Shown: positions 3,205 through 53,668, numbered from the stretch's first letter. The stretch: 59,183 nucleotides of DNA from a virus (IMGVR_UViG_3300049489_000417:1-59183), one strand, 5' to 3'. Notes: a model not told the origin generated them from the sequence alone. Made by a program: numbers and translations.

Positions 3205-6200
3205 TTACGCAGCTTTCAACTTAGCGATGCTGTCTGTGGCCAAGTTCAAAGCCGGGCTGAGAGCGAATGCCGGATCGTTAACCGCGCCGAGGCCCCACTC
3301 AGACGTACCGAGCAAACTAGCCTTTTTGATGGAGTACACCATCGCTTCGCCGGTAGTCATCTTGTCGATGTAGTCAGACCCAGTCAGCGTGTGCTTGAGC
3401 ACACCAGAGCCGTAGGCGAACGGTGTAGATGCAAGCAAGATCATCAATGGCGTAGCGTTGCTGTGCTCCATGTACTCGGTAAACGCGCGGCTGAGGATGA
3501 CGTCTTGGAACGCCATAGTGAACCGCTTCATATGGGCGAACAACATCCAGTGCGGGTCGTGCATCCACGGCGCGGTGTTCACTTCGTTGGGTCGTACAGC
3601 AGCGGAGTCCGCAAACGCAGCGACCGCGTTCATTATCTTCTTGCTGCCCCAGTCAATCTTGCCATCGACATCATCCTTGGTTAGCCCTAGTTCCTCGAGA
3701 TAGCGGGTGGATTCGTCTCCAGTTTTCCATGTGGCGTCTTTTGCATGACGCTCAACGAAGCCGCGCCCGGCTACAGAAGCGGCCACACGCATTTGGCGAG
3801 ACCAGCCGTCTAGCATGTTCCACTTGAAGAATACTTTCGAAGCTTTGCGCGCAAGGCCGGATGCGTTCTCACCGATGAACAGGTCGCCCATCGATTCCAT
3901 GTTGACCGTATGCTCGAGAATACCAGCATGTACGGCGTACAGCTCGTCTTCACTCAGCTGAACCGGCCCGCCGAGGCTACCTATAGTCTTTGGGAATGCG
4001 CTCATACCGGCGATGTACGCAGGGATGATGTCACCGAAGTTACCAGAGCGGGCAGCGATAGCGAACGGCTCAACCAGCGACGCGAACAGAGCAAGCGGCA
4101 GAGTCGCGAGGTTGGTAGCAACGGAGATGTTAGCCATCAGCTTGCGGACCTTCGGATCCATGTCACTACCAATACGCCCGTGCTGAGCGTCGAAGAATGT
4201 CTTAGCTGCGGCACCGACACGCGCGTTACCCTGCTTCTTAATTGCGGCGACCAAAGCTTCGGCCTTCTCAACCACCTCTTTCGGCATAACACGATGCTGA
4301 ACGGCGCGGTCTATGAGCGCGCCGAAATACAGGTCAGGATCGTACTGACGCCACTTCTGCTCCAAAGCTGGCTTTGTGAACATCTTGCTGGACTTCAAAC
4401 CAGGCATAACCGCCTTGTTGTCGACGATCTGATCCAGCGTGAGGTTCGCGTCCCGTCTACCGAACTCTAGGACGTCCGCGTTCCACGCAGCCGAATCCTT
4501 GTTGATAGCGGCGTAGTCGTACACAGGTGGGAGATCGTCCCAATCGCCGTGAAAATCCTTGATAGTGGTCATGACTTTACGCAGCTCTTTAGTTGCGTCG
4601 TCGTTGGCGGGCTGCCCGTCAAGGAGTCCTTTTAGCGCCGCGGTAACCGCATCGGTGCCGAACTTCTCTTTGTACAGGTCGTAGTCCGCACGCAAGCGGC
4701 GGTTCTCACGGATGCGCACATACGTAAGGCCGGTTGTCTTGTCCGCGTACATCTTAACGAGCTGGCGCAGCTCGGGGACGTTGTACTTGTCCGCTAGCGC
4801 AAGCGCGCTGACTTCGGCGCTTCGGAACACCTGACGAAGAGCTTCCGCAACTGGGGCCAAAGCTTTGGTGGCTCGCTCCACGATGCTGTCGAGCTGGCGA
4901 TAACCGAACTGCTTATCGACGGAGTCCATAGACCAGCCGGTCTTAGCCATGTCGCCTGAGATAAACGACTTGGCAAAGTTCTCAAACCGCATGTTCTCGG
5001 AAGTAAGTCGAAACGCCCACCGCAGGAACTTAAGCACCTTGTTCACAACGCCAGCGCTGTTATCACCGAGTGTAATCTTGCCTTGCGCAGCCAGTTCAAT
5101 AGCGTAAGCGATGCGCTCATCTACGTCGCGGCGCATAGCCGCGGATATCTTCTCGGCGTTGGGATGCCCCTCGAAGTGCTTGGCGATTTGCGACTGCAGC
5201 CAGACAGTAGACGACGCGCGGTCAAGTGTGCCGATAATGCGTTTGGCAGTGGCGTTGCCTGCGTCAGCGCGGTTACGGATCCCCGTGACCATGCGGTGCG
5301 CGGCCTCGTGCGTGAGCACGCCGTCGAGCGACGCAGCAGCGGTGGAGAACTGGATCACCTGGGTGTCTGTAACGATTTCGCCAGCTTTAGTAGGGTCACT
5401 GGTTATCTCAACACCGCGGTTCCACTCACCAAGCAGCTTATCAACGAAGGTGCTAGCGTACTTCAGCGCGTCGTCGGTAGTCTTGATCTCGTTCACCTCG
5501 GCTTCAGTGGCCTCACCGGTGTTCAGGCTCTGTTTACGCTTAGCGGTAACTACGCTTCGATTTTTCTGGGCCAGCTGAGCTAGCGACGGCTTACCTTCGC
5601 CGATCTGACCAGCTCGGTGCACGCCAACACGCGGGTTGTGCTGCTCGGGGTCGCCGACAATGCGTTTTAGCTCAGCCTTGAGCGCCGCTGCTACGGTAGT
5701 CTTGTCCGACCCCGCCTTGATCTTTTCCGCAGCGCGCAACCTTGCCGCTGTAACTTCAGCGTGTACGGGGGTAGCCTGGAGGGCGTCTATTTGTGCCTCT
5801 ATCTCCCTGACTCGTTCGCCGTTAGCGTTAACCAACCGCTTCTTGAGTCCGGCTATAGCTGACTCACGCAGCTCCGGTGTCATAAGCATCGCGTCGCTCT
5901 GCTTAACTTCCGAAGTACCAATAGGCGCTGCCGGGGCCTTCTTAGGGTCGTGCGTAATGCCCTGATTCTGTCGGATAGCAGCCTGGCGTTTAGCGTCAGC
6001 AACTTCGGAGTCGAGAAGCTTCTGAACACCAGAGTCCTTAGGAGTCGGTGCAACTTCAGCTTTCGCCATCGCAGACAGAGCAGCGTACGCATCACGTTGT
6101 GCCTGTTCGTACAACTCAGAAGTACCCGTCTCGCGCGTGAGTGGCGCTACGTCCTTGAGGGGGACCGGCTTGGTTTCTAGGGCCCCCGGCGACCGATCTC

Positions 6201-11399: not shown

Positions 11400-13172
11400 T
11401 TACTCCCTTGGCAAGTCGGTGTTCATCTGCTTCTTCAGTATGTCCGGAAGCGATTTCGGAGCGACTATTGTATTACCGTTCGGCAACTGCACGACGAGCT
11501 TATCCTTATTGTTCGGATCAGGCATAACGACGTAGTTCTGCGAGTCGGGCAAGTGCACCGGCAGCGTGTCTCTGTAGCTACGAACTCCCTCATGCGCCGC
11601 GAGGCCCGCCACCGCGCCAGCAGCAACTGGGGCCGCAGTGGTGACAGCGGCTTTACCTCCTTGCCATGCCTTGGCAATACCTTTGGCGTTAGTAAACGCT
11701 TCTTTGGCCTGCTTGAACTTACCTCTCCGCAGCGCGACCGCGCCCGTAACACCGGCTGCACCCAAAGCGGCAGCACCGCCCCAGAACTTGGCCCAGTTAT
11801 CGTCGGGGTTAGCCATGAACTCGCGGACCGCGGCACTATTCCCCTGCTGCTGCGCTATACGCGCGAGGATATGCGGCTTGTCAGCGAAGTCGGCAAGATC
11901 TTTAGGAACAACCGTCCTGCCATCCGGAGCCACGTCGGCATACGTACCAATCTCTTTAGCAATCTGCGCCATCTGCGCTTGATTACCGGCAGCTTGAGCT
12001 TTGTTCCACTGCTCCTGAAGACCAGAAACGTGCGACGAAATGGTGTTGGCCGCAACTTCCGGCGCTACTTTCATGCGCTCCAACACCGAAAGTACATGGG
12101 TCCTGTTACCCTGCTTGAGCGCGCGCGCGTCGTCAGCCGCTTTTGAGAGCGCGTCACTAGAGCCCTTAGCCGAAGCGACGCGCATGGCATACTGCTCTGC
12201 AGCGAGCTCTCTGGCAATCTGCGGGTCCCACTTGGCCATACCAAGCCGACGAACCTTGTTCTCGTCCTCAAGGTCACTGATTCGCCGCGCCTCCTCTGCT
12301 TTGTACCTCGCCCGCAACTCTGGATCCGTACCATCGCCATGCAGCGAGTTACCGACGCGGATCATCCCTGACGTCTTGTTAGGATCACCATGCCCGGTGT
12401 TGACGTACCGCTTTATGGCGTCACTAGGTACGCCTGCGCCTTCCATCAAGCGGAGTGTAGCGTCGTCGTACGGGTTCTCATCGGCAGCGGGCTTGGCAGC
12501 TTGGGTAGCTTGGGCAGCTTGGGTAGCTTGGGTAGCTTGGGTAGCTTGGGTAGCAGGAGGGGCGGGCTTAACAAATGCCCCTTCGCCGTGGATATCCTTA
12601 ATGCGTTTGTCTAGCTGCCTGCGGAGTCCAGCGTCGAAATTACCAAAACTACCCACCCTAACAATATCGTCAAAGACGCCTGCGCCTGCAGAACCTATGT
12701 CGTACACCGCCTCCATGAAACCAGGCGGGGCGAACGTCTGCTTAGCAGCCTCCGGAGTGAACTTGTACTTACCAGCGTCCTCGGCAATTTTAGCACCGAG
12801 GTCCAGCGCTATCATCGGTCCGACTGCACCTCTAGCCAATTCTCTAGCTCTGACTGCGGAAGGCCTACCTTCGAGTCCACCAGACATTGTGCCGCCCGCC
12901 ATCGGCGAGCCGGTCGGATTTGGGGAGTTGTGCTTGAGAAACTCTTCAGGGTCGAGAAACACACCCTCATTTGCGTGAAGACGCTTTTCGCCGCCGAGCT
13001 TTACTTCCTTCCACACACCGCCCGGCTTCTTGCCGTTGGTCTCAGCGATTAGCCGCTCGACTGCCTTGGCACCGCCCATCGCTTCGACTGTCTTGACAGG
13101 CAGCACAGCCTCGCCTGCTGTAAGCATCGCGGGGACTTTATCTACGCCCTTTGGGCCTTTGACGAGCGACAT
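11400..13172 (-). CDS. internal virion/ejection protein
   Basis: 590 aa; N-terminal GPKGVDKVPAMLTAGEAVLP motif seen in injected/tape-measure-type proteins; Gly/Ala hydrophobic C-terminal segments. Confidence 0.7.
   Translation of the reverse strand: MSLVKGPKGVDKVPAMLTAGEAVLPVKTVEAMGGAKAVERLIAETNGKKPGGVWKEVKLGGEKRLHANEGVFLDPEEFLKHNSPNPTGSPMAGGTMSGGLEGRPSAVRARELARGAVGPMIALDLGAKIAEDAGKYKFTPEAAKQTFAPPGFMEAVYDIGSAGAGVFDDIVRVGSFGNFDAGLRRQLDKRIKDIHGEGAFVKPAPPATQATQATQATQAAQATQAAKPAADENPYDDATLRLMEGAGVPSDAIKRYVNTGHGDPNKTSGMIRVGNSLHGDGTDPELRARYKAEEARRISDLEDENKVRRLGMAKWDPQIARELAAEQYAMRVASAKGSSDALSKAADDARALKQGNRTHVLSVLERMKVAPEVAANTISSHVSGLQEQWNKAQAAGNQAQMAQIAKEIGTYADVAPDGRTVVPKDLADFADKPHILARIAQQQGNSAAVREFMANPDDNWAKFWGGAAALGAAGVTGAVALRRGKFKQAKEAFTNAKGIAKAWQGGKAAVTTAAPVAAGAVAGLAAHEGVRSYRDTLPVHLPDSQNYVVMPDPNNKDKLVVQLPNGNTIVAPKSLPDILKKQMNTDLPRE
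12498..12554. repeat. 9-bp in-frame tandem repeat (AGCTTGGGY x6) encoding (QAT)n linker
   Basis: Directly visible. Confidence 0.95.
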
Positions 13173-41065: not shown

Positions 41066-41090
41066 ATGAGCACTATACCAAAAAAATTCT

Positions 41091-41182
41091 AAAATTTTTA
41101 GAAAAGTTGGTGAATGAGGGTGTGAAGGCTACACCAAAAAATCCCGAAAATTTTTAGAAAAGTTGGTGAATGAGGGTGTGAA
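41091..41182. repeat. 36-bp direct repeat x2 (41091-41126, 41147-41182) at the late/early divergence
   Basis: AAAATTTTTAGAAAAGTTGGTGAATGAGGGTGTGAA twice, 56-bp period. Confidence 0.95.
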
Positions 41183-47345: not shown

Positions 47346-47648
47346 CAGCGCTCACCCTTGCCCTCCTCGAGCAAATCGCCTCGGGACCAACAAAGGGTGA
47401 AAAAAGCCAAACCCAAAGAACCCGAGCTGTGGAGTGTTCGCCAGGTCCTCATACACGCCGGCCTCAACCCGTGCATGTCCCAGGTCCGCAAGATGCAGAT
47501 CATCAAGGAGCTGGGGGTCACACCCAAGGTGACCACCGGCGTTCAACGGACGTGGATGCGCTTCGAGCCGAACCACGTAATCCCCAAGATCAAGCTCTGG
47601 CAAGCCTCGCAGAAGGAAAAGGCCGCGAAAGCCTTGCGTAGAGCCTGA
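47342..47648 (+). CDS. basic hypothetical protein with apparent +1 frameshift near 47396
   Basis: MTALTLALLEQIASGPTK joins VKKAKPKEPELW...; codon bias switches frame at AAGGGTG. Confidence 0.6.
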
Positions 47649-47788
47649 TTCCATCTGTCATACAAAGTGGTCACTGCCTAATTTTTAGTCAGTAAGCATT
47701 TGCTTATATTGCATGACATATAAGAATTCGTAGCTGCCTAAATTTTAGGCATGCTGCACCGCAATAAGTGTCGAAAATCCGGAAAAGC

Positions 47789-48209
47789 GGTCACCCTGGC
47801 AACATTTTAGTAGTCGTGTAACACTTTGAAGTGTAACAGCCTCAAAGCCAGTACTGGCAAGGGCGCCAGAGACGCTGACCCCCTAAAAAACAGGGTGTTA
47901 CACTTTTTTTTATTTTCAAACAAGAATATTGAATATCTAACTTTTTAGCGTGTTTTCTAACTTGTAAAAAACATGCTGAACTCGGTTTTCAAAGTGTAAC
48001 AAGTGTTACTAAATCGCTAAAACCCTTGCCACCACTGGGCCGGAGCCTGTTCCACTTCGAGGTGCTTTTGTAACCTTTTCTGTTGCCAGGGTGACCACCT
48101 TGCTTTCGAACCCCTTCGAAACCCTTGGCATTACAGCGTTTCACTGTTACACTTTGAAGTGGTCACCCTCTCATAAAACACTTACCACTCAGACCAAGTG
48201 GTCACCCAA
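47789..48209. other. probable replication origin: large imperfect inverted repeat, AT-rich core, iterated motifs
   Basis: Arms 47789-47863 and 48023-48096; repeated GTGTAACA/TGTTACAC and GTGGTCACCC; upstream of primase-helicase. Confidence 0.65.
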
Positions 48210-48225
48210 ACAGCGAGGTAGTAGC

Positions 48226-48474
48226 ATGCCGATCAAAGAAGGGAACCTTATACTGCGTTGCGTCATATCCAAAGAGGATATGGACCTGCTTCTAGGCCTT
48301 CACCCGTCGAGAAAACCGAGCCTGTGCCTCAAACAACTCTTGCGCACTGCTGCAGAGCACAATCAGTTTCTGGCTACCAAGGAAGTTGCCCGGAACAGGG
48401 CACTCAAGAAGCGCCTTCGCGAGCAAGTGCTCGCAATGGCCGACACATTAAACGAGCTGGGAGAGCGGGAATGA
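48226..48474 (+). CDS. small protein, possibly ribbon-helix-helix DNA binder
   Basis: GAGG RBS before MPIKEG; strand-helix-helix pattern. Confidence 0.6.
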   Translation: MPIKEGNLILRCVISKEDMDLLLGLHPSRKPSLCLKQLLRTAAEHNQFLATKEVARNRALKKRLREQVLAMADTLNELGERE

Positions 48475-48767: not shown

Positions 48768-51038
48768 ATGAACATCTACTTCCTGGAAGCAAAAGTACCC
48801 CTCACAAAGACTTTCAGACCAGATGGCACCTCAGACCAATACCCGCTTATCTCGAAGTTCACATCCTCGGAAGTCAGTGTCGCCTCTATCGAGGACCTCT
48901 ACGACGCCCTTGTAGCCCACAGCCAGAAGGGCCACTGTCTGCTCAAAGGCGCCCTCTCGCGCCCCCTTGTAAACGAGTCCCGCGCAGGGGCCACAGACCC
49001 TGACGCCCCCACGCAGTGGATCTGCATCGACATTGATGGCCTAACCGCCTACAAGGACCTGGACGCATGGATATCGACCACCCCGTTAGCAGACGTCTCT
49101 CATATAGTGAACTGGTCAGCGTCTTCTGGCCTGAAACCCGGCATTCGAGCCCACGTCCTCGTCTTGCTAGCTGCATTCGCCTCCCCAGCCACCATCAAGG
49201 CCTGGCTCAAATCTCTAAACCTTGGCGACGCCAATATCTCTGGGCAATTAGGCCTTACACGGGCCAAGGCCGTCATCAAGTGGGTCATAGACCCGACAGT
49301 GGCACAGAATGACAAGCTTATCTACACAACCGCTCCCGTTCTCATACCACCGCTGGCCGACCCTCACCCGGGGCTTTCCAGGTACGTACTCAATCTACGT
49401 ACCCAGCCATCGCTTACCCTGCCACCGATTGATGTTGAGAGCGTTCGCGCCGCAGAAACTAAGAAAACCAACGAACTGAGGGCCCTGGAAGGGCTCCCAG
49501 CCAAGAGGACTCACTCCTATGTACGTGCTGGCCAAGTTGAATACCTCTCAAAGCCTGGCGTCACGGCGGAAGTCACGGGCGTTAAAAAAGATAGGGGTTA
49601 CACCTATCTTAACCTTAACGGCGGTGATTCGTGGGGATACTATCATCCGGACAACGTCGTCGAGTTCCTTTATAACTTTAAGGGCGAACCGACCTATAAG
49701 CTTAAGGAAATTTGCCCCGACTACTACTCCACCGCGGTTAGTGAGCTTCAATCGACCCCGGACAAAACGGGCCGTGTCTTTTTGGCTTTTAGAGAGTTTC
49801 GAACCGGTCAATATTGGAATGGAGTCTTTGTCGCAGATAATAATTCGCTTAGTCTCGCGGCGGCCCGCAGTACTCAGCAGCTTGACCACTTCATGGCCCA
49901 GTATCAGGCCCCATGGGACGGCGTACCTAAAGACTGGTCTATCGAGTATGCCCCATCCAAGGCTAAGCGCGTGGACTTTGACCAACGAATAGTCAACACA
50001 TACGAAGCCCCTGGTCACGCCTACGATCCCAACACTCAATACACGCTTCCGCCCATAACCAAAAAGGTCATAGAACATGTTTGTGGCGACGTCCAGATTG
50101 CACAAATTTTCATTAATTGGCTCGCGTACATCGTCCAGACTAAACAGCGCCCTTCGACAGCATGGCTTTTCCACGGCACCCAAGGTACTGGTAAGGGTCT
50201 TCTTGCCAACTTCGTATTGCCTGCCCTCCTTGGCAGGGCAAATACGGCTCTACGACGCCAATCTGAACTGGAGGAGCGGTTCAACAGCTATCTCGAAGGA
50301 AAAATGGTCGTTGTGGTGGACGAAGTGCAGATGGGTGCACTATCCGGCGCTAAGCGAATCAACTCAGATATCAAAAATTACATCACAGAAGACACAATCA
50401 CCATTCGTCGTATGCGTGTGGACGGGTACTCGATTCCTAACACTTGTTCGCTAATCTTCTGTTCGAACATGCCAGATCCGGTCATCCTCGATGAGACTGA
50501 CCGGCGCATGCACATGGGCGCCTACCAGCCTAACAAGCTGCAGATCACACAAGCTGAAGTAGTCCAGCTCGAGAAAGAAGCTGAGCAACTTAACGGCTAT
50601 TTGCTGCAGTTCGCAGTAGATCCCGACAAAGCTCGATACCCACAATGGACTGAAGCCAAGAAAAATGTACTCGATCTGTCTCTATCCGGCCCTGAGGTTC
50701 TCGCTCGGGCCATTAAAGCAGGGGATTTCGCATACTTTGTTGATCAGCTACCCGATACAAGGCTTCAAACAACAATCAACCGCGAAGTCCAACTTAAAAA
50801 TTACGAGGCAACCCTGCGTGGCATTGCCAGGCGCGGAAATCATCTTACACGTGACGAGGCCCATACACTCTTCGTATGGACGCAGGGTACTGGCGAGGCC
50901 AGTACAACGAAGTTTGCAACATATCTTAAGCACCTTCGACTCGAGCTCAAGAAAATCCGTATTGACGGCCAGGTTGTTACGGCGATTCCAGTCAACTGGA
51001 ACGTTCTAGAAGCCGACAAAGCGAGGCTGGGCATATGA
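48768..51038 (+). CDS. primase-helicase (prim-pol N-terminus, SF3/DUF5906 helicase)
   Basis: CIDID and RAHV primase motifs; HGTQGTGKG Walker A, VVVDE Walker B, FCSN, DRR. Confidence 0.9.
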   Translation: MNIYFLEAKVPLTKTFRPDGTSDQYPLISKFTSSEVSVASIEDLYDALVAHSQKGHCLLKGALSRPLVNESRAGATDPDAPTQWICIDIDGLTAYKDLDAWISTTPLADVSHIVNWSASSGLKPGIRAHVLVLLAAFASPATIKAWLKSLNLGDANISGQLGLTRAKAVIKWVIDPTVAQNDKLIYTTAPVLIPPLADPHPGLSRYVLNLRTQPSLTLPPIDVESVRAAETKKTNELRALEGLPAKRTHSYVRAGQVEYLSKPGVTAEVTGVKKDRGYTYLNLNGGDSWGYYHPDNVVEFLYNFKGEPTYKLKEICPDYYSTAVSELQSTPDKTGRVFLAFREFRTGQYWNGVFVADNNSLSLAAARSTQQLDHFMAQYQAPWDGVPKDWSIEYAPSKAKRVDFDQRIVNTYEAPGHAYDPNTQYTLPPITKKVIEHVCGDVQIAQIFINWLAYIVQTKQRPSTAWLFHGTQGTGKGLLANFVLPALLGRANTALRRQSELEERFNSYLEGKMVVVVDEVQMGALSGAKRINSDIKNYITEDTITIRRMRVDGYSIPNTCSLIFCSNMPDPVILDETDRRMHMGAYQPNKLQITQAEVVQLEKEAEQLNGYLLQFAVDPDKARYPQWTEAKKNVLDLSLSGPEVLARAIKAGDFAYFVDQLPDTRLQTTINREVQLKNYEATLRGIARRGNHLTRDEAHTLFVWTQGTGEASTTKFATYLKHLRLELKKIRIDGQVVTAIPVNWNVLEADKARLGI

Positions 51039-51375: not shown

Positions 51376-51949
51376 CACGATCAGCCTTACCTGCTTCGTC
51401 GGTATCGTTAAAGGTACCGGCGACAAACAGGTAGTGGTCGGCAGTGCAGAGACCCCCGCGGCCCTCGAACAACGCATCCGCTCTGGCTTTCAAAGCCTGG
51501 ACGACCTCATCATCCGTCGCAACAAGATCAAAGCCGAACTAGTCCAGGCCAACGCAACCACGCCCGTGACCATCGCCGGCTGCACGTACACCATCGCCGG
51601 CGCTATCGAATACAAGCGTGCCATGGAGGTCGAGCGACAGATCGTTATGCACATGCGGGCACAGCTGGCCAAAGCCGAGCAGATTGTCCAACAGGGCAAC
51701 ACCAAGATGGAGACCGACATCGAGACTGCAGCCGTCGCCGCAGCTGGCGGGGACAAGAAGGCCGTAAGCACCGAGGTCTTCGAGATGGTCGCCGCGCCGC
51801 GTCGCGCCATGCACAAGCATGCGCTGCTCGACCCGGCCAATCTTCGCGAGAGCATCGAGCAGCGCGTGAAGCTCATCGAGGCCTTCGCGGCTGAGTGCGA
51901 CGTCGCACTGTCGGAAGTCAATGCACGCACCGAGATCGAGGTGAACTAA
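51311..51949 (+). CDS. long helical-hairpin/coiled-coil protein (resembles DIP1984/DUF6847-type family)
   Basis: TLTRALVELKTLDARI...ANATT.VTIAG..YTIAGAIEYK...LLDP...DVALSEVNARTEI. Confidence 0.8.
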   Translation: MAKITLTRALVELKTLDARISNTISLTCFVGIVKGTGDKQVVVGSAETPAALEQRIRSGFQSLDDLIIRRNKIKAELVQANATTPVTIAGCTYTIAGAIEYKRAMEVERQIVMHMRAQLAKAEQIVQQGNTKMETDIETAAVAAAGGDKKAVSTEVFEMVAAPRRAMHKHALLDPANLRESIEQRVKLIEAFAAECDVALSEVNARTEIEVN

Positions 51950-51950
51950 T

Positions 51951-52268
51951 ATGGCCCAGGTCACTCGCTATATCCACCTCCGCTTCAAGGACAGCGACGG
52001 GCGCCCTACTTCCCGAGGTGGGCTAACAGTCGCCTATCTCATCGATACCGAACTGGACTCTGTGATCCGGTGGTCAGCTGCCCGCTGTTCTTCAAACGAC
52101 AACTTCTGCAAGAGTACCGGGCGGACGATCTCACAAGGCCGGTTGCACAGCCCACGACTTAGTCGTACGATCTCGCCTTTGGCTGAGAAACTGTTTGTGA
52201 AACTGATGCACGAGACTCCGGTCAATCAGCTCTTCATCAACAGTCGGCCGATAGTGTTTATTCGCTAA
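51951..52268 (+). CDS. conserved phage protein
   Basis: GGLTVAY...ARCSSNDNFCKSTGR.I..GR motif. Confidence 0.8.
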   Translation: MAQVTRYIHLRFKDSDGRPTSRGGLTVAYLIDTELDSVIRWSAARCSSNDNFCKSTGRTISQGRLHSPRLSRTISPLAEKLFVKLMHETPVNQLFINSRPIVFIR

Positions 52269-52339
52269 TGTAGCTCAGTTGGTAGAGCAACCGCCTTGTA
52301 AGCGGTAGGCCAGTGGTTCGACCCCACTCATTAGCACCA
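52264..52339 (+). tRNA. tRNA-Thr(TGT)
   Basis: Full cloverleaf, ACCGC-CTTGTAA-GCGGT, ACCA end. Confidence 0.95.
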
Positions 52340-52347
52340 GTTTCAGA

Positions 52348-52423
52348 CGCGGGGTAGCGCAGTTGGAAGCGCGCCTGGCTCATACCCAGGAGGCCGTAGG
52401 TTCGAGTCCTACCCCCGCATCCA
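52348..52423 (+). tRNA. initiator-type tRNA-fMet(CAT)
   Basis: CGCGGGG acceptor with C1xA72 mismatch, CAT anticodon, CCA end. Confidence 0.92.
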
Positions 52424-52430
52424 GTTTTAC

Positions 52431-52508
52431 GACCGCCAATGTTCCAAGGCTCGGCGAGTTGGACTCCAAATCCGACTGTGTGGGGTTCGATTCCCTGGGT
52501 GGTCGCCA
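52431..52508 (+). tRNA. tRNA-Trp(CCA), atypical D arm
   Basis: GACCGCC/GGTGGTC acceptor, TTGGA-CTCCAAA-TCCGA, GCCA end. Confidence 0.85.
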
Positions 52509-52515
52509 CGTTTTT

Positions 52516-52877
52516 GAGTCTCATCAGCAGCGAACAAGTGAGAACTCTCAGCCCGTTCCTGGCCCGGGTTAAGCCAGGAAATTTGACTAGCTCAATGGTA
52601 GAGCGACACCCTGCTAAGGTGTATGTATCAGGTTCAATTCCTGAGTCTATGACGATGACTGACAGTCCGCCCGGGAGAGGGGATAACCCGATGAACCCGG
52701 AGACTTAAAAGGTCAACAGTCAGCGCTCAACGGTCAACCATGAACAGTCAACTTGTAACGGTAACACACTGAGGTCTAAACACCCATCGCTCTTAAAATC
52801 CTGGGTTAACGTTTTTGTGGGTTAGCTCGACAAGACCCCCACTTGTACGCCAGGCTGCTGTTTGATGAGACTCACCA
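52516..52877 (+). ncRNA. candidate large structured RNA with tRNA-like domain and heptamer array
   Basis: Perfect terminal inverted repeat 52515-52526/52863-52874 ending ACCA; further end pairings; tRNA-like D/AC/T arms 52585-52647; 7-nt repeats 52711-52765. Confidence 0.75.
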
Positions 52878-52890
52878 CACACTACACCCT

Positions 52891-53091
52891 ATGCCAGATA
52901 CCCGATTCCATGCAGAGTTCTACATCGACAAACAAGGATACCTCACAGGTCGTGTCCGCTTTCCTAAAGACGACAGCGCAACACTGGAAGCTCTCAACGC
53001 CATCATCGATGAGTACGCCAAACGACTCGAAACAAGCCACCACGACGTGATGAACCTCATACGGAGGCAGCACAATGAGTCAGAAAGTTGA
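52891..53091 (+). CDS. hypothetical protein
   Basis: Start MPDTRF right after the RNA element. Confidence 0.6.
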   Translation: MPDTRFHAEFYIDKQGYLTGRVRFPKDDSATLEALNAIIDEYAKRLETSHHDVMNLIRRQHNESES

Positions 53092-53236
53092 AGACTTGCA
53101 GAAGCAGATCGACCTTCTACGTGGCGGTCTCGAATACCTCGCTACCGAAGGTAACAGAGAAGACGCGGATCCTATGTACCTGGTTGAGATGGCAGAACAT
53201 ATCCTTGAAGAGCATAACGAACTCAAAAGGAATTGA
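53075..53236 (+). CDS. 53-aa acidic helical protein
   Basis: GGAGG RBS; MSQKVEDLQKQIDLL... Confidence 0.6.
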   Translation: MSQKVEDLQKQIDLLRGGLEYLATEGNREDADPMYLVEMAEHILEEHNELKRN

Positions 53237-53311
53237 AATGAAAACATCCGAACCGCATGGCTTGATGCTTAACGCACGCGCCGCCATCGCAAAGGCACGG
53301 GGGGAATAACC

Positions 53312-53668
53312 ATGAAAACATCTGGCTTGATCGGCCCCGCCCTTGATTGGGCAGTGGCGAAGGCTTGCTATACGGACGGCAGAACAATTTACACAGATAC
53401 AGGCATCGTCCTTATACACACCGCACCGGATAGCGGCATTCATTTTCGCTTCTCCCCGTCAATCGACTGGTCCCAAGGTGGCCCGATCATTGAGCGGGAG
53501 AAGATCAACATCCGTGATGAAGTCACATGTTGGAGTAGTTGGATGTGGGACTCAAATCGATGTGGTGATGTTTCTTATTACGGCCCTACCCCACTCATTG
53601 CAGCCATGCGCTGTTACGTTGCGTCCAAGTTGGGCGACGAGGTTGATGTACCGGAGGAACTGACATGA
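53312..53668 (+). CDS. NinX/DUF2591-family phage protein
   Basis: LDWAVAKA, FSPSIDWSQGGPIIERE, GPTPLIAAMRCYVASKLG. Confidence 0.88.
   Translation: MKTSGLIGPALDWAVAKACYTDGRTIYTDTGIVLIHTAPDSGIHFRFSPSIDWSQGGPIIEREKINIRDEVTCWSSWMWDSNRCGDVSYYGPTPLIAAMRCYVASKLGDEVDVPEELT

Follow-up and report, generated by a model that had tools for sequence, protein, structure and literature searches.

Short tandem units with degenerate sequences in non-coding DNA raise the question of whether their periodicity serves recognition, at the level of the RNA or of the DNA, or is a vestige of the process that produced the array. We addressed this question for an array of heptanucleotides that lies between a tRNA gene cluster and a small gene in an uncultured freshwater-sediment phage. 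Throughout, the window is the whole stretch of DNA that was analyzed, a contig of 59,183 bp. The array is a genuine repeat, and of the readings weighed below, the one we tentatively prefer is slippage during replication followed by decay.

Genomic context of the array

The window represents the whole contig of a tailed phage in which the terminase, portal and virion genes occupy the minus strand from about 3 to 41 kb, and the early and replication genes occupy the plus strand from 41.7 kb to the contig end and on into 1-2.7 kb. An exact terminal repeat is absent from the contig ends; when the end sequences are read by eye, an ORF that begins at about 59133 seems to leave the contig end (59133-59183) and to resume at 1-49, which suggests a circular or circularly permuted complete genome. 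The sole large replication protein in the window is a D5-like primase-helicase, which is likely to be the replication initiator of the phage and has its closest named relatives in the Pseudomonas phages KPP25 and phiR18 (37.6% identity). The array starts 1.67 kb 3' of the stop codon of the primase-helicase gene, within a 237-nt non-coding gap that separates the last gene of a four-tRNA cluster from a small conserved gene for a 66-aa protein. The features of this region, in the order of their coordinates, are:

48768-51038, plus strand: D5-like primase-helicase (DUF5906), 756 aa (Pfam PF19263, E 2e-24; PHROG 24712, DNA-primase families)
52264-52653, plus strand: tRNA gene cluster, Thr-TGT, Met-CAT, Trp-CCA and Ser-GCT (ARAGORN; the Rfam gathering score supports three of the four)
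52671-52700, plus strand: small predicted hairpin, CCGGG...CCCGG, between tRNA-Ser and the array (MFE and centroid folds)
52711-52765, plus strand: heptamer array, seven units of 7 nt and one 6-nt unit, consensus GGTCAAC (sequence, Tandem Repeats Finder, random-genome test)
52766-52876, plus strand: non-coding block just 3' of the array (conserved in related populations)
52891-53091, plus strand: 66-aa gene, the first after the array (ATG at 52891; C/A-rich leader)

The array begins 57 nt after the end of the tRNA cluster and ends 125 nt before the ATG at 52891. The intervening hairpin at 52671-52700 has no T-run behind it and was not called as a terminator. Within the cluster, the predicted tRNA-Trp (52431-52508) is missed by Rfam at the gathering score and reaches 27.5 bits as a tRNA-Sec-like sequence; the predicted tRNA-Ser (52581-52653, anticodon GCT) is just 73 nt long and has no long variable arm, which is unusual for a bacterial-type serine tRNA. 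The earlier note placed the array inside a large RNA. Between 52400 and 53000, Rfam returns tRNAs alone, both at the gathering score and at E <= 10, and no covariance model of Rfam 15 matches over the array, so that this placement finds no support.

The start codon of the 66-aa gene is supported by five homologs of 65-72 aa that align from the same methionine. The gene has no Shine-Dalgarno (SD)-like motif, in contrast to 29 of the 49 genes in the window that have one. The AF2 model of the protein (pLDDT 89.6) shows a strand-strand-helix-helix arrangement for which Foldseek found no fold match in the PDB at E <= 0.001. A ribbon-helix-helix repressor was considered as the product of this gene and rejected, given the lack of a Pfam match, the strand-strand-helix-helix fold and the lack of a Foldseek match.

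A scan of 51900-53400 for promoters, which covers the sigma-70 type and leaves phage-specific promoters outside its scope, returned 0 sigma-70-like sites, and no plus-strand terminator was predicted between the tRNAs and the 66-aa gene. Given that all genes neighboring the array are on the plus strand and that no promoter or terminator is predicted nearby, the array is most likely co-transcribed with the tRNAs and the downstream genes.

The base composition of the region also changes. In the plus-strand genes from 44 to 54 kb, C exceeds G and A exceeds T on the coding strand (negative GC skew, positive AT skew); the GC skew is positive beyond about 54 kb, the cumulative GC skew reaches its lowest point at about 53-54 kb, and the switch near 54 kb is unexplained by gene direction. 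Elsewhere in the window, a 56-bp tandem repeat in two copies (41073-41182) occupies the divergent gap between a small-terminase-like gene and the early genes, and is a possible promoter or packaging region. A 9-bp repeat, AGCTTGGGT, extends over 12491-12554 (6.3 copies, 95% matches) within a minus-strand ORF of 590 aa (11400-13172), whose product, a protein of the virion module, would contain a repeated tripeptide.

Sequence and statistics of the repeat

The array read by the earlier note is present as described at 52711-52765, where the consecutive units are GGTCAAC, AGTCAGC, GCTCAAC, GGTCAAC, CATGAAC, AGTCAAC, TTGTAAC and GGTAAC, and its A/C-richness is borne out by the base counts (A18 C15 G12 T10). 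With default settings, Tandem Repeats Finder reports the first four units alone (52711-52738, period 7, 71% matches, score 35); with lenient settings, it reports 52708-52765 (period 7, 8.4 copies, 66% matches, score 54), at the top of all arrays with a non-triplet period in the window, and by this program the array is the only one of its kind in the genome. The column-consensus score of the seven full units, 38 of 49, is the genome-wide maximum and was reached by none of 400 first-order Markov random genomes, whose maxima had a mean of 31.7 (sd 0.95) and a highest value of 36. The lag-7 self-match, a cruder statistic, amounts to 29 of 49 for the array; among 300 random genomes, 1.3% attain this value at lag 7 and 10% do so at any of eight periods. 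The array is a genuine tandem repeat, far beyond chance. It is also non-coding: no ORF of at least 40 aa extends over it, and the six frames, read by eye, show early stops or lack a start. The unit GGTCAAC occurs in 10 copies on both strands of the window, two of them inside the array, and is not enriched elsewhere.

The conservation of individual unit positions is less clear. According to the earlier note, the register is kept while the first positions of the units vary, and indeed the mismatches at unit positions 1 to 7 number 4, 3, 1, 2, 0, 1 and 0 (11 in 49 cells), with a single one of the 11 in the final AAC. Uniform decay nevertheless yields such clustering in 10.6% of trials (P = 0.106) and a three-column core this clean in 6.6% (P = 0.066), so that the proposed pattern is not statistically separable from uniform decay. 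The clean AAC core is suggestive, being close to significance but short of it.

Folding and the enclosing inverted repeat

The earlier proposal of little pairing potential stands for the array with its near flanks: the fold of 52654-52900 has z = +1.94, with 199 of 200 shuffles at least as stable, and the fold of 52700-52780 has z = +1.39, with 183 of 200 shuffles at least as stable. In the wider context, the 381 nt from 52505 to 52885 fold more stably than all 100 shuffles (z = -3.26), and the mean unpaired probability of the array there (0.37) does not exceed the average (0.38). Within this longer fold, short helices of 2-5 bp join the array to the 3' half of tRNA-Ser; these would compete with the cloverleaf.

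This fold is closed by an inverted repeat that encloses tRNA-Ser, the array and the conserved block:

52515-52531, plus strand: left arm of the inverted repeat (repeat search; MFE helices)
52854-52874, plus strand: right arm of the inverted repeat (repeat search; MFE helices)

The arms form 12 perfect pairs (52515-52526 with 52863-52874) and five more, and the local inverted-repeat score is equaled by 0.4% of 500 shuffles. An extended inverted duplication of the tRNA region was also considered and was rejected, the 12-mer alone being complementary and nothing else at long range. The inverted repeat may function as a stem for processing, or it may mark the two ends of a module that was inserted. 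It is conceivable, although quite improbable, that the array is the single-stranded core of a module of ~360 nt (52515-52874) that would be cut from the tRNA transcript, with each heptad binding one protein domain or subunit, as a recruitment platform or a decoy. The module would consist of the atypical tRNA-Ser-like gene, the hairpin, the heptad array, the 110-nt conserved block and the closing stem of 12+5 bp; its boundary falls where homology shifts in two related populations (see below), which is consistent with this reading.

The unstructured character of the stretch, its slight excess of C over G and its position directly behind the tRNA cluster would also be compatible with a Rho loading site after the cluster, with a packaging or recombination site, or with debris of decayed tRNA genes, and a tRNA-like fragment (GGGTTAGCTCGAC...) in the block downstream points in the same direction. 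We regard these possibilities as very improbable. A typical Rho site is C-rich and G-poor, whereas the array, with 27% C and 22% G, is far from this composition. Further points against this group of readings are the distance of 11 kb to the terminase genes and the adjacent 56-bp tandem repeat, and the lack of a detected integrase among the ORFs scanned.

Conservation in related populations

Searches of IMG/VR, JGI metagenomes, GTDB and GenBank phages, and of contigs from two other freshwater-sediment runs (hereafter X2 and X3), yielded no relative that covers the array. Over 52757-52876, the X3 contig shows 7 differences from the window across 120 nt (about 94% conserved) and reaches just the last ~8-9 nt of the 3' part of the array; after 52876, it continues with 198 unrelated bases and then matches again at 52891-53072. 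The X2 contig has no listed difference over 52849-52876, and eight differences as well as one inserted base within 52877-52896. Homology to both populations shifts 2-3 nt past the right arm of the inverted repeat. Judging from these alignments, the block 3' of the array, the right arm included, is conserved and has a sharp end at 52876.

More distant relatives of the neighboring genes were of little help in extending the comparison to the array. The primase has one sibling with 87% identity in IMG/VR, on a contig of 15,979 bp that ends 458 nt past the primase gene, and this sibling is the only one of 815 primase homologs (E <= 1e-20) above 41% identity. The 212-aa neighbor protein found nothing in IMG/VR or the JGI metagenomes; the 598 relatives of NinX all have at most 54% identity and show no synteny at the array; and a 22-nt stretch beside the array gave 0 matches in IMG/VR. 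The alignment search with the 66-aa protein yielded none in IMG/VR and one spurious match of 19 residues in GTDB genomes, and in a blastn comparison with GenBank phages, the tRNAs were the only part of the query with a match.

Heptamer arrays in putative leaders of other phages

Stretches with four TCAAC cores at period 7 number at least 120 in IMG/VR, compared with 59 for the control core CCATA. Heptamer arrays are therefore common in general, the control core also yielding 59 stretches, in agreement with the literature as summarized in PMC4679880. The TCAAC arrays are nevertheless distinctive in their placement. When ORFs of at least 80 aa are counted, 53 of 146 TCAAC arrays lie within 20 nt before a sense ORF and 17 of 146 before a divergent one (among the matches listed); for the control core, the respective counts are 6 and 3 of 56. 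An SD-like motif precedes one of the 35 ORFs adjacent to TCAAC arrays and 23% of the others (569 of 2471), again among the matches listed. In these loci (L163-L282), which belong to unrelated phages, the last two bases of the unit vary, the array often follows a hairpin, and several arrays can occur per genome, for example at 5474, 8083, 9058 and 10060 in L200, and six in L197. The TCAAC-core arrays look like SD-replacing leader elements, a candidate assignment that derives from their placement; we found no description of TCAAC heptamer arrays in phages in a literature search.

These observations bear on the possibility that the array under study acts as RNA, offering a single-stranded platform to an RNA-binding protein with several domains or subunits; S1, a cold-shock protein and a factor of the phage itself are candidates. 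The array would then serve the SD-less 66-aa gene as a stand-by site or leader, or would be the open core of the ~360-nt RNA. This reading, which covers the earlier idea of a landing pad, appears somewhat unlikely to us. The array has the sense orientation relative to the surrounding plus-strand genes, and no terminator is predicted from the tRNAs to the 66-aa gene; with its near flanks, the array is less structured than shuffled sequences; and the next gene combines the lack of an SD motif with a C/A-rich leader. The stability of 52505-52885, with its closing stem, also favors a role of the RNA, as do the frequent location of TCAAC arrays shortly before SD-less ORFs in unrelated phages and the proposal, in PMC4679880, that TAACTGA repeats directly 5' of start codons are sites for S1, Csp or CsrA.

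However, the array shares with the start-proximal leader arrays the sense orientation and the SD-less gene, but neither their closeness to the start nor their recurrence. It lies 125 nt, rather than a few nt, from the ATG, with no ATG, GTG or TTG within 25 nt past its end, and it is single in the genome, in contrast to the several arrays of phages that use them. In the X3 population, the 198-nt insert separates the conserved block from the 66-aa gene and so uncouples the array from this gene. There is no kinship in replication or leader arrays with the TCAAC-array phages beyond four weak tblastn matches, the host evidently uses SD motifs, and no Rfam family matches. Moreover, the 381-nt fold places part of the array in helices with the 3' half of tRNA-Ser and leaves it with an average unpaired probability. 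Against the TRAP-like pad proposed earlier, GAG and TAG triplets, the signature of TRAP targets, are absent from 52711-52765.

Short-period arrays in the primase family

At the DNA level, the unspaced heptads would be putative sites for a phage DNA-binding protein, either as a second set of iterons for the primase-helicase, in the manner of P4 crr, or as an omega-like operator or centromere that binds one dimer per heptad. We consider this reading unlikely, notwithstanding several observations in its favor. The array belongs to the replication module, 1.67 kb past the primase-helicase gene, and the cumulative GC-skew minimum is close by. Among 80 loci of the primase family, 33 have a short-period array in the 300 nt that precede the start of the primase gene, and such arrays are 15-fold denser upstream of the primase (1.58 per kb) than elsewhere (0.103 per kb). 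Cooperative binding to unspaced 7-bp heptads is also established, with 10, 7 and 9 heptads of the sequence WATCACW described in PMC2441792; of the features of the omega type given there, the array has the unspaced 7-bp units but neither a cognate gene among the 22 ORFs searched nor an overlap with a predicted sigma-70-like promoter.

The arrays of the primase family (loci L084-L162) have periods of mostly 7-8 bp and units such as ATAAGAAT, GTAAGAAT and AGTGTAA; the units are lineage-specific, often with dispersed or inverted copies, and a AATCAAnnACTTAGG-like box recurs behind the arrays. The primase-upstream arrays are candidates for an origin or regulatory region. In the window and its 87% sibling, the corresponding position, upstream of the primase operon, is taken by a non-coding region, which in the window has 580 nt (47650-48230), with six copies of GTGGTCACC within one mismatch (47528-48206), six sites of the near-palindromic GTGTAACAC (47816-48152) and more than one occurrence of CTGCCTAAnTTTTAG. 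Conservation between the two phages is seen in several islands. The region is likely the origin or early control region. A conserved GACGGACT element that would link the window to the upstream regions of the family was tried and dropped, with 44 matches against 54.6 expected.

The clustered GTGGTCACC and GTGTAACAC motifs of this region offer a possible link to the array, the unit GGTCAAC being one mismatch from GGTCACC, but a likeness of this order is expected by chance for 8.8% of heptamer units. GGTCAAC itself is absent from 47.6-48.2 kb and unenriched elsewhere, so that the recurrence expected of an iteron is lacking. The arrays of the family lie upstream of the primase, not downstream, and in neither the window nor its 87% sibling does a tandem array precede this gene. 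Nor is there an obvious binding partner: a Pfam search of 22 distinct ORFs found no gene of the ribbon-helix-helix, ParB or any other heptad-binder family, and the 66-aa product has no recognizable DNA-binding fold. The units all run in the same direction, with no inverted copies, and no sigma-70-like promoter is predicted beside them.

Replication slippage as the preferred explanation

The reading that we prefer, to which we give slightly less than an even chance, is that the array is an old, decayed heptanucleotide slippage repeat in a transcribed, unstructured spacer. Replication slippage would have multiplied a unit close to GGTCAAC in the spacer between the tRNA cluster and the next gene, and point substitutions and the loss of one nucleotide would later have eroded the array. 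The transcript of the tRNAs and the downstream genes would include it as an A/C-rich stretch without structure, and any role of the array would be that of a spacer or leader and not of a specific binding array; we infer that it lacks a specific function.

Consistent with this explanation, the units are arranged head to tail without spacers and beyond chance, as in simple sequence repeats, whose units measure 1-11 nt, and the spread of mismatches is one that uniform decay produces in 7-11% of trials, with no constrained core demonstrated. According to PMC4679880, which cites Mrazek 2007, heptanucleotide units are the commonest class of long simple repeats in most prokaryotic genomes and are ascribed to polymerase slippage. 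The composition-matched control core CCATA likewise forms four-unit heptamer arrays in the 59 IMG/VR stretches mentioned above. Within the genome, the array is single and its unit unenriched elsewhere, and its A/C-richness matches the strand composition of the 44-54 kb region. No array follows the tRNA cluster in any of seven primase-family loci viewed, which were picked by hand from the 15 of 160 loci with tRNAs. The absence of heptad-binder families from the 22 ORFs searched and the lack of a known DNA- or RNA-binding fold in the adjacent 66-aa product also fit. The earlier argument that the degeneracy of the units speaks against recent slippage is sound for recent slippage but does not extend to an old slippage origin.

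Other observations weigh against slippage followed by free decay. The AAC columns carry only one of the 11 mismatches (P = 0.066). The block 3' of the array, together with the last 9 nt of the array, is ~94% conserved in the X3 population, and for this reason the neighborhood of the array is not free-drifting. The 12+5-bp inverted repeat around tRNA-Ser, the array and the block is matched by 0.4% of shuffles. Furthermore, TCAAC-core arrays outnumber those of the control core in IMG/VR by a factor of at least two and are non-randomly placed, and the TCAAC core may be favored by function in some phages. The usual signature of slippage is a copy number that varies between close strains, and the searches found no relative that covers the array. 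Finally, the replication module of this DUF5906 primase family is characterized by short-period arrays.

Implications

For now, the array is a degenerate orphan microsatellite of one uncultured freshwater-sediment phage and matters little. If relatives were found to keep the register, or a protein to bind, it would gain importance, either as a phage example of a periodic single-strand landing pad or as a second site resembling an origin for a primase-helicase family that is little studied. Other results of the analysis are perhaps more useful, namely, the recurrent TCAAC arrays that seem to replace SD motifs in unrelated phages, as candidate translation-initiation elements, and the 15-fold enrichment of arrays upstream of DUF5906 primase-helicase genes, as candidate origin or regulatory elements.

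Comparison with known repeat systems

The targets of TRAP consist of 9-11 G/UAG triplets with spacers of 2-3 nt, and those of HutP of UAG triplets 4 nt apart, with a 7-nt period. These systems and the landing-pad proposal share the notion that each repeat of a single-stranded RNA is bound by one subunit, and the sites of HutP also share the period of 7 nt; the array differs in having no GAG or UAG triplets, and no TRAP or HutP homolog was detected among the ORFs scanned. The tRNA cluster of phage T4 encodes extra stable RNAs, which shows that phage tRNA clusters can do so. Among the heptanucleotide repeats of cyanobacteria known as STRR, the units include CAACAGT and TTGGTCA, for which our literature search found no paper giving them. 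In tandem, CAACAGT is equivalent to AGTCAAC, one of the units of the array, but nothing indicates that the phage infects cyanobacteria.

The alpha primase-helicase of P4 binds iterons, with the octamer TGTTCACC, at two sites, ori and crr, that are about 4.5 kb apart. The phage studied here shares with P4 an SF3-type primase-helicase and, a few kb from a region rich in motifs, a second site with repeats, and its motif GTGGTCACC resembles the P4 iteron. In contrast to P4, the unit of the array is unlike the upstream motifs, the likeness being at chance level, and the array is strictly tandem at 7 bp.

The omega protein of pSM19035, as described in PMC2441792, binds 7-10 unspaced heptads with one dimer per heptad and forms a continuous protein helix on the DNA. 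There, the heptads (WATCACW) occur in both orientations and overlap promoters, and the ribbon-helix-helix gene is adjacent, whereas the array in the window has a single orientation, no such gene and no predicted promoter.

The TAACTGA direct repeats of marine Beggiatoaceae, some Cyanobacteria and Bacteroidetes (MacGregor 2015, PMC4679880) are, in that paper, proposed binding sites for proteins of the S1, Csp or CsrA type. These repeats lie a few nt from start codons, in 2-6 near-perfect copies and in about 170 places per genome, whereas the phage has one degenerate array of a different unit, 125 nt from the start; shared are the non-coding tandem heptamers in the sense orientation, the predicted unstructured RNA and the SD-less gene. 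The TCAAC arrays of IMG/VR phages that are listed here have at least four perfect cores, are often recurrent, occur in unrelated phages and, in 36% of cases, lie within 20 nt before an SD-less ORF; the array has in common with them the TCAAC core, the period of 7, the sense orientation and a preceding hairpin, which is frequent among them. Finally, the long simple repeats with heptanucleotide units, as presented in PMC4679880, are near-perfect, in contrast to the 66-71% matches of the degenerate array in the window, and have the same organization of unspaced, head-to-tail, non-coding units of 7 nt.
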